Shown: in pieces, positions 1 to 8,229 of the stretch | Layout: each line of letters begins with the position of its first letter | How positions within the stretch are numbered: the first letter of the stretch is position 1 | Origin: a virus | Lineage: Duplodnaviria; Heunggongvirae; Uroviricota; Caudoviricetes | IMG/VR virus record: IMGVR_UViG_2526164665_000018 | Reading direction: 5' to 3' (one strand) | Length of the DNA: 12,481 bases | Translations under genes and position numbers: made by a program | The notes under the pieces: generated by a model | Databases searched by the model: none | Told to the model about the DNA's origin: nothing | What the model saw: only the letters and a program-made list of their open reading frames with translations

Positions 1-45
1 CCGGAAATCCTGGAGACTAAACTCCCTGAGAAAGAGGTAAACAGG

Positions 46-372
46 ATGACTAAAAATACTCGTTTTTCCCCCGAAGTCCGTCAGCGGGCGATTCGTATGG
101 TTCTGGAAAGTCAGGATGAATATGACTCACAGTGGGCGGCAATTTGTTCCATTGCCCCAAAGATTGGCTGTACGCCGGAGACTCTGCGTGTCTGGGTTCG
201 CCAGCATGAGCGGGATACCGGGGGCGGTGATGGTGGGCTCACCAGTGCTGAACGTCAGCGTCTGAAAGAGCTGGAACGTGAAAATCGTGAACTGCGCCGC
301 AGTAACGATATCCTTCGCCAGGCTTCCGCTTATTTTGCGAAGGCGGAGTTCGACCGCCTCTGGAAAAAATGA
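46..372 (+). CDS. IS3-family transposase OrfA (helix-turn-helix/leucine-zipper part)
   Basis: 108-aa [25 protein letters not shown]... recognised as IS629-type OrfA. It ends in an A6 slippery run (364..369) where the IS3-family -1 frameshift into OrfB occurs. Confidence 0.9.
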
Positions 373-1259
373 TGCCACTGCTGGATAAGCTGCGTGAGCA
401 GTACGGGGTCGGACCGGTATGCAGCGAACTGCATATTGCCCCGTCAACGTATTACCATTGTCAGCAACAGCGACATCATCCGGATAAACGCAGTGCCCGT
501 GCGCAGCACGATGACTGGCTGAAGAAAGAGATACAGCGCGTATACGATGAAAATCACCAGGTATACGGTGTGCGTAAAGTCTGGCGTCAGTTGTTACGGG
601 AAGGTATCAGAGTGGCCAGATGCACTGTGGCACGTCTCATGGCAGTTATGGGACTTGCCGGTGTTCTCCGGGGTAAAAAGGTCCGCACTACCGTCAGCCG
701 GAAAGCCGTTGCCGCATGCGACCGCGTAAACCGTCAGTTCGTGGCAGAACGTCCAGACCAGTTGTGGGTGGCTGATTTTACCTGGGTAAGCACATGGCAG
801 GGCTTCGTTTATGTGGCGTTCATCATTGATGTGTTCGCCGGATACATCGTGGGATGGCAGGTCTCATCATCCATGGAAACAACATTCGTGCTGGATGCAC
901 TGGAGCAGGCGTTGTGGGCCCGTCGGCCGTCCGGCACAATCCATCACAGTGATAAAGGTTCTCAGTATGTATCGCTGGCCTACACGCAGCGGCTTAAGGA
1001 AGCCGGATTACTGGCATCAACAGGGAGTACTGGCGACTCGTATGACAACGCGATGGCTGAGAGCATCAATGGTCTTTACAAAGCGGAGGTAATACACCGT
1101 AATAGCTGGAAAAACCGGACAGAAGTGGAACTGGCCACACTAACGTGGGTGGACTGGTATAACAATCGACGATTGCTGGAAAGGCTGGGCCATATTCCTC
1201 CGGCAGAAGCAGAAAAAGCTTATTATGCTTCCATCGGAAATAATGATCTGGCAGCCTGA
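369..1259 (+). CDS. IS3-family transposase OrfB (DDE catalytic domain), normally expressed as an OrfAB fusion by -1 frameshifting
   Basis: 296-aa ORF overlapping OrfA in the -1 frame, with the typical DDE-transposase layout (...WVADFTWV...HSDKGSQY...YDNAMAES...). Identical in protein sequence to the minus-strand copy at 4909..5799. Confidence 0.9.
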
Positions 1260-1302
1260 GTTCACAGATAAAATACTCTCCAGGAAACCCGGGGCGGTTC
1301 AG

Positions 1303-1569
1303 CGTGATGTTGATCGCGCAGAAACAGATTTACTTATCAACCTGTCAACGCTTACCCAGCGCGGTCTGGCAAAGATGATTGGCTGTCATGAATCGAAGAT
1401 AAGCAGAACGGACTGGAGATTTATTGCTTCGGTCTTGTGTGCTTTCGGAATGGCATCAGACAACAGTCCGATTAGCAGAGCTTTTAAGTATGCGCTTGAT
1501 GGACTCACCAATAAAAAACGCCCGGTGTGCAAGACCGAGCGTTCTGAACAAATCCAGATGGAATTCTGA
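1303..1569 (+). pseudogene. cII: cII transcriptional activator homologue, 5'-truncated by the IS insertion
   Basis: The frame open after the IS end encodes ...GLTNKKRPVCKTERSEQIQMEF, matching the recalled lambda CII C-terminus (..ILTNKKRPAATERSEQIQMEF) and helix-turn-helix region. The first ~8-10 codons are missing. Position immediately upstream of O matches lambda order. Confidence 0.75.
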
Positions 1570-1601
1570 GGGAATTACTGGATCAATCCACAGGAGTCAT
1601 T

Positions 1602-2473
1602 ATGACAAATACAGCAAAAATACTCAACTTCGGCAGAGGTAACTTTGCCGAACAGGAGCGTAATGTGGCAGATCTCGATGATGGTTACGCCAGACTATCA
1701 AATATGCTGCTTGAGGCCTATTCAGGCGCAGATCTGACCAAGCGACAGTTTAAAGTGCTGCTTGCCATTCTGCGTAAAACCTATGGGTGGAATAAACCAA
1801 TGGACAGAATCACCGATTCTCAACTTAGCGAGATTACAAAGTTACCTGTCAAACGGTGCAATGAAGCCAAGTTAGAACTCGTCAGAATGAATATTATCAA
1901 GCAGCAAGGCGGCATGTTTGGACCAAATAAAAACATCTCAGAATGGTGCATCCCTCAAAACGAGGGAGGTTCCCCTAAAATGAGGGACATCCCTCAAAAC
2001 AGAGGGACACAAAAGACACTATTACAAAAGAAAAAAGAAAAGATTATTCGTCCGAGAATTCTGGCGAATCCTCTGACCAGCCAGAAAACGATCTTTCTGT
2101 GGTTAAACCGGATGCTGCAATTCAGAGCGGCAGCAAGTGGGGAACAGCAGAAGACCTGACCGCCGCAGAGTGGATGTTTGACATGGTGAAGACCATCGCA
2201 CCATCAGCCAGAAAACCGAATTTTGCAGGGTGGGCTAACGATATCCGCCTGATGCGTGAACGTGACGGACGTAACCACCGCGATATGTGTGTGCTTTTCC
2301 GCTGGGCCTGCCAGGACAACTTCTGGTCCGGTAACGTGCTGAGTCCGGCCAAACTCCGCGACAAGTGGACCCAGCTCGAAATCAACCGTAACAAGCAACA
2401 GGCAGGCGTGACAGCCAGAAAACCAAAACTCGACCTGACAAACACTGACTGGATTTACGGGGTGGATTTATGA
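1602..2473 (+). pseudogene. O: Replication initiator O, frameshifted inside the ori iteron region
   Basis: N-terminal frame (1602..2159) matches recalled lambda O (MTNTAKILNFGRGNFA...). C-terminal frame (open from 1979, first Met at 2099, to 2473) matches the lambda O C-terminus (...SGSKWGTAEDLTAAEWMFDMVKT...GVDL). The two parts are in different frames; total length 872 nt is not a multiple of 3. Confidence 0.75.
1950..2050. repeat. ori-lambda-like origin: three iterons (each an inverted repeat, TCCCTC...GAGGGA) followed by an A/T-rich stretch
   Basis: atccctcaaaacgagggag / gttcccctaaaatgagggac / atccctcaaaacagagggac at 1950..2008, then aaaagacactattacaaaagaaaaaagaaaag. Lambda has four iterons at this position inside O (established knowledge). 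Confidence 0.8.
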
Positions 2474-3171
2474 AAAACATCGCCGCACAGATGGTTAATT
2501 TTGACCGTGAGCAGATGCGTCGGATCGCCAACAACATGCCGGAACAGTACGACGAAAAGCCTCAGGTACAGCAGGTAGCGCAGATCATCAACGGTGTGTT
2601 CAGCCAGTTACTGGCAACTTTCCCGGCGAGCCTGGCTAACCGTGACCAGAACGAACTGAACGAAATCCGCCGCCAGTGGGTTCTGGCTTTCCGGGAAAAC
2701 GGGATCACCACAATGGAACAGGTTAACGCAGGAATGCGCGTAGCCCGTCGGCAGAATCGACCATTTCTGCCATCACCCGGGCAGTTTGTTGCATGGTGCC
2801 GGGAAGAAGCATCCGTTATCGCCGGACTGCCAAACGTCAGCGAGCTGGTTGATATGGTTTACGAGTATTGCCGGAAGCGAGGCCTGTATCCGGATGCGGA
2901 GTCTTATCCGTGGAAATCAAACGCGCACTACTGGCTGGTTACCAACCTGTATCAGAACATGCGGGCCAATGCGCTTACTGATGCGGAATTACGCCGTAAG
3001 GCCGCAGATGAGCTTGTCCATATGACTGCGAGAATTAACCGTGGTGAGGCGCTCCCTGAACCAGTAAAACAACTTCCTGTCATGGGCGGTAGACCTCTAA
3101 ATCGTGCACAGGCTCTGGCGAAGATCGCAGAACTCAAAGCTAAGTTCGGACTGAAAGGAGCAAGTGTATGA
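2470..3171 (+). CDS. P: Replication protein P (DnaB helicase loader)
   Basis: 233-aa ORF MKNIAAQMVNFDREQMRRIANNMPEQYDEK..., near-identical to recalled lambda P. Start overlaps the O stop. Confidence 0.92.
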   Translation: MKNIAAQMVNFDREQMRRIANNMPEQYDEKPQVQQVAQIINGVFSQLLATFPASLANRDQNELNEIRRQWVLAFRENGITTMEQVNAGMRVARRQNRPFLPSPGQFVAWCREEASVIAGLPNVSELVDMVYEYCRKRGLYPDAESYPWKSNAHYWLVTNLYQNMRANALTDAELRRKAADELVHMTARINRGEALPEPVKQLPVMGGRPLNRAQALAKIAELKAKFGLKGASV

Positions 3172-3458
3172 CGGGCAAAGAGGCAATTATTCATTACCTG
3201 GGGACGCATAATAGCTTCTGTGCGCCGGACGTTGCCGCGCTAACAGGCGCAACAGTAACCAGCATAAATCAGGCCGCGGCTAAAATGGCACGGGCAGGTC
3301 TTCTGGTTATCGAAGGTAAGGTCTGGCGAACGGTGTATTACCGGTTTGCTACCAAGGAAGAACGGGAAGGAAAGATGAGCACGAACCTAATTTTTAAGGA
3401 GTGTCGCCAGAGTGCCGCGATGAAACGGGTATTGGCGGTATATGGAGTTAAAAGATGA
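3168..3458 (+). CDS. ren: Ren (Rex-exclusion relief protein)
   Basis: 96-aa ORF MTGKEAIIHYLGTHNSFCAPDVAALTGA..., matching recalled lambda Ren in sequence, length and position after P. Confidence 0.88.
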   Translation: MTGKEAIIHYLGTHNSFCAPDVAALTGATVTSINQAAAKMARAGLLVIEGKVWRTVYYRFATKEEREGKMSTNLIFKECRQSAAMKRVLAVYGVKR

Positions 3459-3538
3459 CCATCTACATCACTGAGCTAATAACAGGCCTGCTGGTAATCG
3501 CAGGCCTTTTTATTTGGGGGAGAGTAAATCGTGGCTGA
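3455..3538 (+). CDS. Candidate 27-aa single-pass membrane peptide (MTIYITELITGLLVIAGLFIWGRVNRG)
   Basis: ATG overlaps the ren stop (ATGA coupling) and the peptide has a hydrophobic core. Too short for the ORF track, so support is only sequence-level. Confidence 0.25.
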   Translation: MTIYITELITGLLVIAGLFIWGRVNRG

Positions 3539-3754
3539 GTTTATGCTCGTCGCACTCAAATGCGTTGGCGTTTGATGGATTCTTCTGACGTTATTTATTG
3601 TTCTGCATAGCTACATTCGTCTTGTGAATGACGGTAAAGACCCATGGTATACGTTGTTTGGCGCTGCATTTGTCTGGGTGATTATCGGTGTTGCGCCTGT
3701 CGCTGTAGCAAAAATGGCGTGGCGTTTTGTGAGTTGAACTGAGGGTAAGTATCG

Positions 3755-4111
3755 ATGGACGAATCAAGAAAGCAGTTTGAGGAATACGTTGCCAAAAAAT
3801 TGAGATTACCATTCGAGATGATAACCGAGGCAAGAAATGGTGATAGGTACTTCGCATTTTCAAGCATGGATATTCGTCACTCCTTAAATGAGTGGTGGAC
3901 TTTATGGCAGGCATCGCGAGCAGCTATTGAACTGGATATCGACTGGCCAGAATCGAATGACGACTTTTGGAAAGATGGTGAAGAAGGTGCTTATGCGATG
4001 GGTTATGAGGATGGGCGTGACAAAACGGTAATTGCAGTAATGAAAGCTATCAGAGCCGCTGGAATTAAAGAGAAGAATTTCGATGAAGCAAACAATATTC
4101 CTCCGAACTAA
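3755..4111 (+). CDS. Hypothetical acidic phage protein (118 aa), accessory gene between ren and ninB
   Basis: Clean ORF with a GAGGG Shine-Dalgarno-like motif ~11 nt upstream of the ATG, rich in Asp/Glu. No family recognised. Lambda has ren and ninB almost adjacent, so this lies in an insert. Confidence 0.6.
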   Translation: MDESRKQFEEYVAKKLRLPFEMITEARNGDRYFAFSSMDIRHSLNEWWTLWQASRAAIELDIDWPESNDDFWKDGEEGAYAMGYEDGRDKTVIAVMKAIRAAGIKEKNFDEANNIPPN

Positions 4112-4666: not shown

Positions 4667-4866
4667 CAATGCTTTTAATTCAACCTGGATTTGGACTTAG
4701 CATCAAAAAAGGCCACATGTTTGGCGAGAAAGAGTCACAACGAAAAATGGTGTCTATCCGGTTGCCATTTATCAGTATTTATTGGCTAAACAGGGAGGCA
4801 ACAAATTATTGGTATACATGCGCCAGAGCAGCATTTAACGACCCTGACTGGTTTGTGAAAAACCAC
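4663..4866 (+). pseudogene. 5' part of a nin-region ORF interrupted by IS629 copy 2
   Basis: ATG at 4663 overlaps the ninE stop. The frame runs into the IS, whose first three bases (tga) create the stop of track ORF 4627..4869. The frame resumes in phase after the IS (see 6213..6383). Confidence 0.4.
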
Positions 4867-4908
4867 TGAACCGCCCCGGGTTTCCTGGAGAGTATTTTAT
4901 CTGTGAAC

Positions 4909-5799
4909 TCAGGCTGCCAGATCATTATTTCCGATGGAAGCATAATAAGCTTTTTCTGCTTCTGCCGGAGGAATATGGCCCAGCCTTTCCAGCAATCGTC
5001 GATTGTTATACCAGTCCACCCACGTTAGTGTGGCCAGTTCCACTTCTGTCCGGTTTTTCCAGCTATTACGGTGTATTACCTCCGCTTTGTAAAGACCATT
5101 GATGCTCTCAGCCATCGCGTTGTCATACGAGTCGCCAGTACTCCCTGTTGATGCCAGTAATCCGGCTTCCTTAAGCCGCTGCGTGTAGGCCAGCGATACA
5201 TACTGAGAACCTTTATCACTGTGATGGATTGTGCCGGACGGCCGACGGGCCCACAACGCCTGCTCCAGTGCATCCAGCACGAATGTTGTTTCCATGGATG
5301 ATGAGACCTGCCATCCCACGATGTATCCGGCGAACACATCAATGATGAACGCCACATAAACGAAGCCCTGCCATGTGCTTACCCAGGTAAAATCAGCCAC
5401 CCACAACTGGTCTGGACGTTCTGCCACGAACTGACGGTTTACGCGGTCGCATGCGGCAACGGCTTTCCGGCTGACGGTAGTGCGGACCTTTTTACCCCGG
5501 AGAACACCGGCAAGTCCCATAACTGCCATGAGACGTGCCACAGTGCATCTGGCCACTCTGATACCTTCCCGTAACAACTGACGCCAGACTTTACGCACAC
5601 CGTATACCTGGTGATTTTCATCGTATACGCGCTGTATCTCTTTCTTCAGCCAGTCATCGTGCTGCGCACGGGCACTGCGTTTATCCGGATGATGTCGCTG
5701 TTGCTGACAATGGTAATACGTTGACGGGGCAATATGCAGTTCGCTGCATACCGGTCCGACCCCGTACTGCTCACGCAGCTTATCCAGCAGTGGCATCAT
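4909..5799 (-). CDS. IS3-family transposase OrfB (copy 2)
   Basis: 296-aa ORF identical to 369..1259. Confidence 0.9.
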
Positions 5800-6122
5800 T
5801 TTTTCCAGAGGCGGTCGAACTCCGCCTTCGCAAAATAAGCGGAAGCCTGGCGAAGGATATCGTTACTGCGGCGCAGTTCACGATTTTCACGTTCCAGCTC
5901 TTTCAGACGCTGACGTTCAGCACTGGTGAGCCCACCATCACCGCCCCCGGTATCCCGCTCATGCTGGCGAACCCAGACACGCAGAGTCTCCGGCGTACAG
6001 CCAATCTTTGGGGCAATGGAACAAATTGCCGCCCACTGTGAGTCATATTCATCCTGACTTTCCAGAACCATACGAATCGCCCGCTGACGGACTTCGGGGG
6101 AAAAACGAGTATTTTTAGTCAT
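5796..6122 (-). CDS. IS3-family transposase OrfA (copy 2)
   Basis: 108-aa ORF identical to 46..372. Confidence 0.9.
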
Positions 6123-6212
6123 CCTGTTTACCTCTTTCTCAGGGAGTTTAGTCTCCAGGATTTCCGGGGCGGTTCACACCACGCAGTTCGTCAGGCAAAG
6201 AGAAAGGCCAAT

Positions 6213-7916: not shown

Positions 7917-8101
7917 ACGCCACAATTCAAACGATACCAGAGCTTCTTATCCAGACACGAGGCAATCAGACCGAAGTGGCGAGGATGCTTTCCTGCGCAA
8001 GAGGAACAGTGCTCAAGTACAACCGAGACAGCAAAGGCGAGCGTCATGTAATAGTTAACGGCGTCCTGATGGTCAAACAGGGCAAGAGGGGAAGACGATG
8101 A
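7913..8101 (+). CDS. ninH: NinH
   Basis: 62-aa ORF ...TIPELLIQTRGNQTEVARMLSCARGTVLKYNRDSKGERHVIVNGVLMV... matches recalled lambda NinH (..TIPDMLVEAYGNQTEVARRLKCSRGTVRKY..). Confidence 0.8.
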   Translation: MNATIQTIPELLIQTRGNQTEVARMLSCARGTVLKYNRDSKGERHVIVNGVLMVKQGKRGRR

Positions 8102-8187
8102 GACTCGAAAGCGTAGCTAAATTTCATTCGCCAAAAAGCCCGATGATGAGCGACTCACTACTGGCCACAGTTTATTGGTTTTCGTAA
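8098..8187 (+). pseudogene. Q: Remnant of a lambda-type Q antiterminator gene (first 20 codons only)
   Basis: MRLESVAKFHSPKSPMMSDS (8098..8157) equals the recalled lambda Q N-terminus; the frame then diverges and stops at 8187. The ATG overlaps the ninH stop. Confidence 0.65.
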
Positions 8188-8229
8188 CTGAGTCATTTTA
8201 TTATTTTATTGCAACTTTTAATCTTTTAT

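Follow-up and report, generated by a model that had tools for sequence, protein, structure and literature searches.

A 67-bp deletion between iterons of its own origin very probably made gene O of a decayed lambdoid prophage of Escherichia coli a loss-of-function pseudogene

Gene O of the lambdoid prophage analyzed here is very probably a loss-of-function pseudogene that arose by a repeat-mediated deletion inside its own replication origin. In the window, by which we mean the whole analyzed stretch of 12,481 nucleotides, the gene is present as an 872-bp frameshifted pseudogene at positions 1602..2473 (plus strand), which corresponds to the 939-bp O of the six-iteron type minus 67 bp. Alignments of the window's O with this six-iteron form contained one clean gap of 67 bp. 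The ancestor is the 939-bp six-iteron O/ori of Shiga-toxin-type (Stx) lambdoid phages.

Over its full length, the 12.5-kb window matched a prophage of E. coli O26-type STEC at 99.9%. In O26-type STEC genomes the matched prophage adjoins ybhC, the integration site of lambda. As annotated in the matching genome, this prophage lacks N, cI, and cro, and further damage consists of two IS copies, a truncated antiterminator and several other genes that are frameshifted or partial. The first IS copy (copy A; 1..1302, plus strand), an IS3-family insertion sequence (IS629-like) in the PGAP annotation of the matching genome, is cut by the window edge and stands where the immunity region upstream of cII would be, thereby replacing it. 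Its transposase ORFs (46..372 and 369..1259) are joined via a programmed frameshift, and an ALIL pseudoknot is located at 327-443. The second copy, also IS3-family and IS629-like (copy B; 4866..6167, minus strand), lies 3.6 kb downstream, truncates the nin region and forms a 1302-nt inverted repeat with copy A, with which it is 100% identical. An Rfam scan of the window yielded the two IS ALIL pseudoknots only; no Rfam family is available for oop or the origin.

The genes cII′, O, P, ren, ninB, and ninE are enclosed by the two IS copies. The cII remnant (1243..1569, plus strand), the 5′ end of which is contributed by the IS, covers positions 6-91 of the 91 positions of the Pfam Phage_CII profile (E = 6e-34); the annotation of strain 08_4358 lists it as a CII-family regulator, and that of O26 11368 marks it “missing N-terminus”. 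An oop-like antisense RNA unit (1512..1627, minus strand) comprises a pO-like promoter (TTGAGT-17 nt-CATAAT, 1627..1599), a transcript running from approximately 1591 to 1512 and a terminator hairpin (1545..1515) followed by a T run. Folding of this unit gave an MFE of -29.1 kcal/mol (z = -3.5), and in alignments it is colinear with lambda oop and pO, placed as described in PMC6022878. Downstream of O, gene P (2470..3171, plus strand, 233 aa; Pfam Phage_lambda_P, PF06992, E = 1e-61) is intact and its start overlaps the stop of O (ATGA); ren (3168..3458, plus strand, 96 aa) is intact as well. The prophage of the window is already non-inducible for reasons besides O.

The N- and C-terminal homologies of O lie in different reading frames, as a sequence-only reading of this DNA had already noticed. 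The truncated O ORF (1602..2159, plus strand, codon starts 0 mod 3) encodes 185 aa and matches lambda O from the start, while the C-terminal O frame, which specifies the linker and the P-interacting domain, is open at 1979..2473 (plus strand, codon starts 2 mod 3) and ends with the stop codon at 2471-2473. In the 185-aa product, residues 1-133 are native O and the remaining 52 residues (134-185) constitute an out-of-frame tail; the full Phage_rep_O profile of Pfam (PF04492) is matched by residues 22-115 (E = 1.4e-36). A single continuous O ORF of 299-312 aa is absent, and the allele length of 872 bp (2 mod 3) differs in this respect from the 939 and 900 bp (both 0 mod 3) of intact forms. The iteron-binding domain is thus uncoupled from the P-interacting domain by the placement of the two halves in separate frames, just as had been proposed, and the frame switch, which had been assigned to 1979..2008, indeed falls there, with the deletion junction inside the third iteron. 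No further lesions are present in the N-domain, the entire C-terminal frame, P, or ren. In its layout the region is an O/ori module of the lambda type, with a Phage_rep_O domain, inverted-repeat iterons of 18-19 bp inside O followed by an AT-rich region, and P downstream.

The C-terminal frame contains no ATG, its earliest possible start being a GTG at 2099, and reading the sequence just upstream of this codon revealed no AGGAGG-like Shine-Dalgarno motif. Independent translation of the C-terminal O domain, for which this GTG would be the sole start, is unlikely.

Exactly three inverted repeats of the window fit the pattern TCCCYYAAAAYN{2,3}GGGA (1951-1967, 1971-1987, and 1990-2007), compared to 0.00 matches expected from shuffles of the window, and motif scan and shuffles together confirm the earlier count of only three iterons. 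Iteron 1 (ATCCCTCAAAACGAGGGA, 1950..1967) equals iteron 1 of 933W, the 1″ of Kozlowska et al., and iteron 2 (TTCCCCTAAAATGAGGGA, 1970..1987) equals iteron 2 of 933W, called 1′, which is diagnostic of the six-iteron type. The third repeat (1989..2007) is a hybrid, ATCCCTCAAAAC followed by AGAGGGA, with the left arm of iteron 3 and the right arm of iteron 6. A G to A exchange at 2003, in the right arm of this last iteron, is private to the window and was absent from all other records examined. The adjacent AT-rich unwinding region (2008..2048, with bounds following the lambda description in PMC3349717) has the same sequence as in 933W and P27; A6 at 2031-2036 is the only homopolymer run of at least five bases in the zone where the two O frames overlap.

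The remaining origin consists of the two distal iterons, an iteron-4-like repeat and the AT-rich region. In Stx origins, O binds well only to the four AT-proximal iterons and weakly to 1′ and 1″, iteron 4 being the weakest of the four well-bound ones (PMC7466680). Judged by these binding data, the window origin appears to keep exactly the three poorest O-binding sites. Still, three iterons were enough for lambda growth, at least in the way Moore 1981 is cited in PMC7466680, and the residual origin may for this reason not be completely dead.

How the 67 bp were lost can be read from the intact six-iteron array, the order of which is I1-GG-I2-C-I3-AA-I4-TAAAAC-I5-TTGCT-I6. Iteron 3 (ATCCCTCAAAACGAGGGA) and iteron 6 (ATCCCTCAAAACAGGGGGA) have their first 12 bases, ATCCCTCAAAAC, in common, and according to the 933W annotation the starts of these two iterons are 67 bp apart. 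In the window, the 12-bp microhomology with the deletion junction is located at 1989-2000, and the deletion is flanked by C-ATCCCTCAAAAC on the left, which belongs to iteron 3, and by AGGGGGA-CAC on the right, which belongs to iteron 6. Such a junction is typical of two direct repeats that have mispaired by strand slippage or recombined unequally, and 67 bp carrying iterons 3, 4, and 5 were very probably lost in this way. Since 67 equals 66 + 1, the frame breaks and only a -1 shift would restore it; translation is predicted to leave the native frame after residue 133 and to reach a stop codon at 2157-2159, resulting in the 185-aa protein.

The intact 939-bp six-iteron O was found via a search of complete E. 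coli genomes. P27, BP-4795, and many Stx1a phages have an identical O, whose identity to those of 933W and H-19B is 98.6-98.9%. The distal pair of the window, ATCCCTCAAAACGAGGGA-GG-TTCCCCTAAAATGAGGGA-C at 1950-1988, is identical to the one of 933W and P27 and in this feature conforms to the six-iteron subtype, whereas the six iterons and the 13 extra O residues relative to lambda that mark this subtype are not found, iterons 3-5 having been deleted. Outside the gap, the allele of O26 11368 showed 0 differences from the six-iteron O of Stx1a_11KH263, and the alleles of F6321 and E110019 showed 1 difference from 933W.

In lambda O, an N-terminal part that binds the iterons and a COOH-terminal part that binds P are connected by a flexible linker, and amber mutants keeping 160, 205, or 294 of the 299 residues are null (PMC6022878). 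The 185-aa product would retain the iteron-binding winged-helix domain but would be devoid of the linker and the P-binding C-domain; as these are missing, the product can presumably not bring P-DnaB to the origin. On these grounds we strongly infer that loss of O function would be the expected consequence of the frameshift. Such losses have a precedent: cells die when a trapped lambda fragment whose O, P, and ori are active is de-repressed, and the survivors of de-repression carry mutations that block initiation, with P alone also being toxic (PMC3349717; PMC6022878). Small deletions and insertions in O have been described among the survivors of replicative killing (PMC6022878; PMC3349717). 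It is plausible that O losses are tolerated or favored in trapped prophages, since the activity of O, P, and ori kills the host. Where the same allele sits amid intact immunity and replication genes, as in several prophages, it could alternatively be tolerated through some residual activity.

Apart from such tolerance, the remnant might have been kept for a role in trans. The 185-aa O N-domain would, together with oop and the three iterons, serve as a decoy or dominant negative and damp the replication of co-resident or infecting phages of the same origin specificity; or, as a satellite origin, the residual origin would be fired by the intact O of a neighboring prophage, leading to regional amplification. 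The iteron-binding domain is intact, and so are the promoter, transcript and terminator of oop; plasmids with oop and lambda iterons are known to prevent phages with a lambda replication module from replicating (PMC3349717). Moreover, in a second prophage of the best-matching O26-type genome, six-iteron O, P, and ren are all intact, and the O of this prophage could act in trans on the residual origin. In O157, defective prophages receive complementation from their neighbors, which also bring about their regional replication (PMC2669165). However, inhibition as published depends on plasmids in multiple copies and on iterons 3-4 of lambda (PMC3349717), whereas here only the iteron-4-like repeat survives, and the surviving iterons in general are the weakly bound ones. 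A promoter for the truncated O is not evident either, because pR is gone and an IS lies upstream, and retention of the remnant looks the same as too little time to decay. A role in trans of either kind therefore appears improbable. Improbable, too, is a wider reading, according to which the iteron array is a recurrent, host-favored replication off-switch and the deletion product is retained as an origin decoy that damps co-resident Stx phages and toxin-gene amplification; within this same joint reading, the decoy would comprise a stable O N-domain able to bind iterons, along with intact oop and three weak iterons.

Another way for the gene to escape loss of function would be recoding. If ribosomes shifted by -1 at any point of 1979-2159, for example at the A6 run (2031-2036), or if transcription slipped there, an O-like protein of full length (291 aa) would result, and O would be functional after all. 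The required direction is indeed -1, both frames are open across 180 nt, an A-rich run with lysine codons is located inside the overlap, no damage is seen in the C-terminal frame, P, or ren, and replication modules that are otherwise intact still contain the allele. Against this stands the absence of any X_XXY_YYZ heptamer in the zero frame of 1979-2159, where the best candidate is G_AAA_AAA at 2030-2036 and all others are A-site-only sites. In addition, the two-frame arrangement occurs in 0 of 50,697 phage records, functional phages being single-frame, and the numerous frameshift alleles that are unrelated to one another and occupy either alternative frame point to mutational debris rather than to a conserved program. 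O dimers bind each iteron (PMC6022878), which implies a stoichiometric need that a trickle of recoded product is unlikely to satisfy. As the alleles show at most 16 differences among themselves or from the six-iteron forms, they are too similar to reveal purifying selection. Recoding is thus very unlikely, and a plain loss of function remains the reading we prefer.

The pseudogene is not confined to the window. Among 5,426 complete E. coli genomes, its exact 40-nt junction was found in 42, in each at a single place; most of these carry the O26-type prophage of the window; other carriers include O157:H7 F6321, O103 ML775, EPEC E110019, O39:NM, SLK172, and 13E0780. The junction-bearing loci comprise at least five different sets of cI, cro, and cII, i.e., heteroimmune prophage backgrounds, with P and ren intact, and in F6321 (O157:H7) the three-iteron allele resides within an otherwise near-complete Stx1a prophage. 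At every inspected locus PGAP called a “replication protein, frameshifted”, the same 872-bp feature bearing this label in RefSeq genomes, and a protein 99% identical to the 185-aa product heads a cluster of 22 members in public data. The intact six-iteron array was detected at 461 places in 356 complete genomes; about one in ten Stx-type arrays in complete genomes is therefore deleted (42 genomes versus 461 intact arrays). None of the 50,697 phage records contained the three-iteron allele, and the junction was not found in GTDB species representatives. Two IMG/VR contigs carry it, but judging by their identifiers these are presumably prophage calls from isolate genomes, and because their names read this way we did not count them as evidence for virions.

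This distribution also bears on whether the assembly had simply collapsed the repeats of a gene that is in truth intact. Short tandem-like repeats are classic sites of collapse, and draft and Logan assemblies contain many frameshift variants of a single nucleotide, some of which may well be errors. Nevertheless, an assembly or sequencing artifact is hardly credible here: the junction recurs in complete genomes from many laboratories and platforms and from serotypes including O26, O157:H7, O103, and O39, as well as in the two IMG/VR contigs, and since intact six-iteron arrays are resolved elsewhere in the same genomes, assemblers do not collapse this repeat. The sequence-only reading had named two observations that would speak against a broken O, namely a frame restored by resequencing and related functional phages with three iterons and a continuous O. 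The presence of the same allele in 42 independent complete genomes opposes the former, and no case of the latter occurs among the phage records.

The same reading had derived the frameshift from the loss of one iteron of about 23 bp from a lambda-type origin with four iterons, but although the window has one iteron less than lambda and the iterons of lambda are spaced by 20, 24, and 23 bp, the last of these not being divisible by three, this derivation failed and is left with practically no probability, as the single indel relative to lambda O is a gap of 28 bp, neither 23 nor 24 (and 67 bp relative to the six-iteron form), as nucleotide alignment with lambda ori showed iteron 2 and both spacers (GG and C) to be unlike those of lambda and identical to those of the first two 933W/P27 iterons, and as the flanks of the gap differ from six-iteron alleles at 0-1 positions and from lambda at 21-25. 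What the window does have in common with the O/ori of lambda (four iterons, 299 aa) is 97% nucleotide identity across O, the location of iterons and AT-rich region inside O, the oop/pO unit at the 5′ end of the gene and the overlap of P with the O stop. It differs from lambda in its second iteron and its spacers, in an array that is 28 bp shorter and of separate derivation, and in the broken frame.

Besides the deletion from the six-iteron type, other alleles of O show further length changes in the iteron array. A five-iteron allele in 13E0780 contains [I1-GG-I2-C] twice followed by I6; it measures 911 bp and has the same junction but a different, P27-like core. In ten complete genomes, among them ETEC H10407 and S88, a fusion of the first and the last iteron in a lambda-type array, again a step of 67 bp, has generated a one-iteron allele with a 172-aa product; O157:H7 also has such a fusion. 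Furthermore, a 23-bp tandem duplication of iteron 3 leads to a 202-aa product in O157:H7. A protein search with the 185-aa product revealed a family of truncated O proteins of varying lengths with a common out-of-frame tail (…RGTQKTLLQKKKEKIIRPRIL…), and many other frameshift alleles of O exist, in both alternative frames. Regarding the O products that end in the third frame, some may be sequencing errors.

The six three-iteron alleles all have the same core haplotype (C-A-A at alignment columns 660/666/693), while their flanks match different six-iteron haplotypes, and SLK172 is a mosaic. Because of this shared core, several deletions and one deletion spread by recombination would look alike among these six. 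Overall, at least two events of the 67-bp type have taken place, in addition to the one-iteron event of the lambda type. Since homologous length-change events recur, the iteron array and the AT-rich stretch of O are a hot spot of deletion and duplication by slippage, and the allele of the window is one common outcome.

Among known systems, the closest to the window is the Stx six-iteron O/ori of 933W, P27, BP-4795, and H-19B, with which it shares the N-domain, the first two iterons with their spacers, the last iteron, the AT-rich region, the C-terminal sequence, P, and ren, with 0-5 nucleotide differences outside the gap. It differs from these by the missing 67 bp, which carry iterons 3-5 including the well-bound inner iterons, so that an O of 939 bp and 312 aa is faced by one of 872 bp that is out of frame and has a 185-aa product. 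The r (ori-) mutants of Rambach and the RK- “ilr” mutants of Hayes are similar in that small deletions in O/ori of lambda stop initiation. RK- survivors come from a trapped prophage (PMC6022878; PMC3349717), and the prophage of the window is likewise trapped and defective. The r mutants, however, carry in-frame deletions of 12-24 bp, by which the site is damaged and O can stay active. The deletion of the window is not of this type: it is 67 bp long, or 28 bp if lambda is the reference, it shifts the frame, and it arose in nature and not under laboratory selection. More similar are the natural iteron frameshift alleles of H10407, S88, O157:H7, and 13E0780, which likewise go back to inter-iteron recombination or slippage with a length change not divisible by three, but which have iteron counts of 1 or 5 and parents of the lambda type with four iterons or of the expanded Stx type.

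That the O of the window is an ordinary pseudogene is already known, as it is flagged as frameshifted in RefSeq. Regarding a natural three-iteron or frameshifted O, its 67-bp origin and its recurrence, we found no description in the literature. The 67-bp origin of the allele and its recurrence are a small refinement of ordinary prophage decay. Within the window, the deletion is one more lesion in a prophage that is already without an immunity region and full of IS elements and pseudogenes. Beyond it, the same 67-bp fusion of first-type to last-type iterons arose on Stx-type and on lambda-type arrays, and iteron fusion is thus a simple and common route by which lambdoid prophages of E. coli lose autonomous replication. 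The occurrence of the dead allele also inside the near-complete Stx1a prophage of an O157:H7 strain bears on the prediction of inducibility: toxin-gene dosage in induced cells is influenced by the ability of the prophage to replicate, and a record of iteron number and O frame could therefore be of use in predicting which Stx prophages are inducible.

The last iteron of the frameshifted gene O reads ACAGAGGGA in the window and ACAGGGGGA in all other records examined. This difference is due to a private G-to-A change at position 2003, within the G-tract of the iteron, which in the native O frame would convert Gly to Arg and represents either a true strain SNP or a sequencing error. Directly beside the dead O, an oop-like antisense RNA unit (1512-1627, minus strand) is still intact. 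Its promoter resembles pO (TTGAGT-17 nt-CATAAT) and its transcript measures about 80 nt. The terminator is a strong hairpin followed by a T run, and its loop is 3 nt longer than that of the lambda oop terminator.

The segment cII'-O*-P-ren-ninB-ninE, with O* denoting the frameshifted O, is enclosed by an inverted pair of 100% identical IS3-family (IS629-like) copies (1-1302 and 4866-6167), both of which contain the ALIL frameshift pseudoknot. O26 strain 11368 is devoid of the left copy and carries a sieB'-'cII fusion in its place. The immunity region was therefore lost first, and the IS inserted later. Further downstream, the lipid A deacylase gene lpxR (8309-9271, minus strand) is present as a moron, with a truncated fragment of an antiterminator on one side and a complete Q gene on the other (Q at 9748-10437, PGAP annotation), the whole arrangement spanning 8098-10437. 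The position downstream of Q, which is occupied by stx in Stx phages, holds only small hypothetical membrane-like ORFs. Within 11690-12481, a late-region DUF6645 gene (from about 11908), frameshifted according to the annotation of matching genomes, resembles the SASA/NanS-p esterase of the Stx1a prophage, and the small minus-strand gene adjoining it is likewise a pseudogene.

Additional natural O frameshift alleles were found in other E. coli genomes. The second prophage of strain 13E0780 contains a five-iteron frameshifted O of 911 bp (L010, 3588-4498), in which a 39-bp unit [iteron 1-GG-iteron 2-C] occurs twice and is directly followed by the last iteron. This arrangement implies either an expanded parental array, possibly with eight iterons, or a duplication that came after the deletion. 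Other such alleles, at 3001-3833 of locus L015 and 3001-3609 of locus L018, include the following two. A single-iteron allele, formed by fusion of the first and last iterons and encoding 172 aa, is found in ETEC H10407, S88 and some O157:H7 strains, and an allele in which iteron 3 is duplicated in tandem (23 bp), encoding 202 aa, in O157:H7 drafts; both products share the out-of-frame tail of the window's O.

E. coli E2865 (NZ_AP018808.1), the best genome match to the window, harbors a second lambdoid prophage with intact P and ren and an intact six-iteron O (2131-3069 of locus L022), adjoined by a HigB toxin module. This prophage could potentially supply O in trans. In E. coli O157:H7 F6321 (NZ_CP038369.1, 1511099-1551138), the window's three-iteron frameshifted O (19627-20498 of locus L005) sits within an otherwise near-complete Stx1a prophage containing int, exo/bet/gam, N, cI, cro, cII, P, Q, stx1AB, lysis genes and a portal gene. 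Since its O is frameshifted, this toxin prophage is predicted to be incapable of replicating autonomously.
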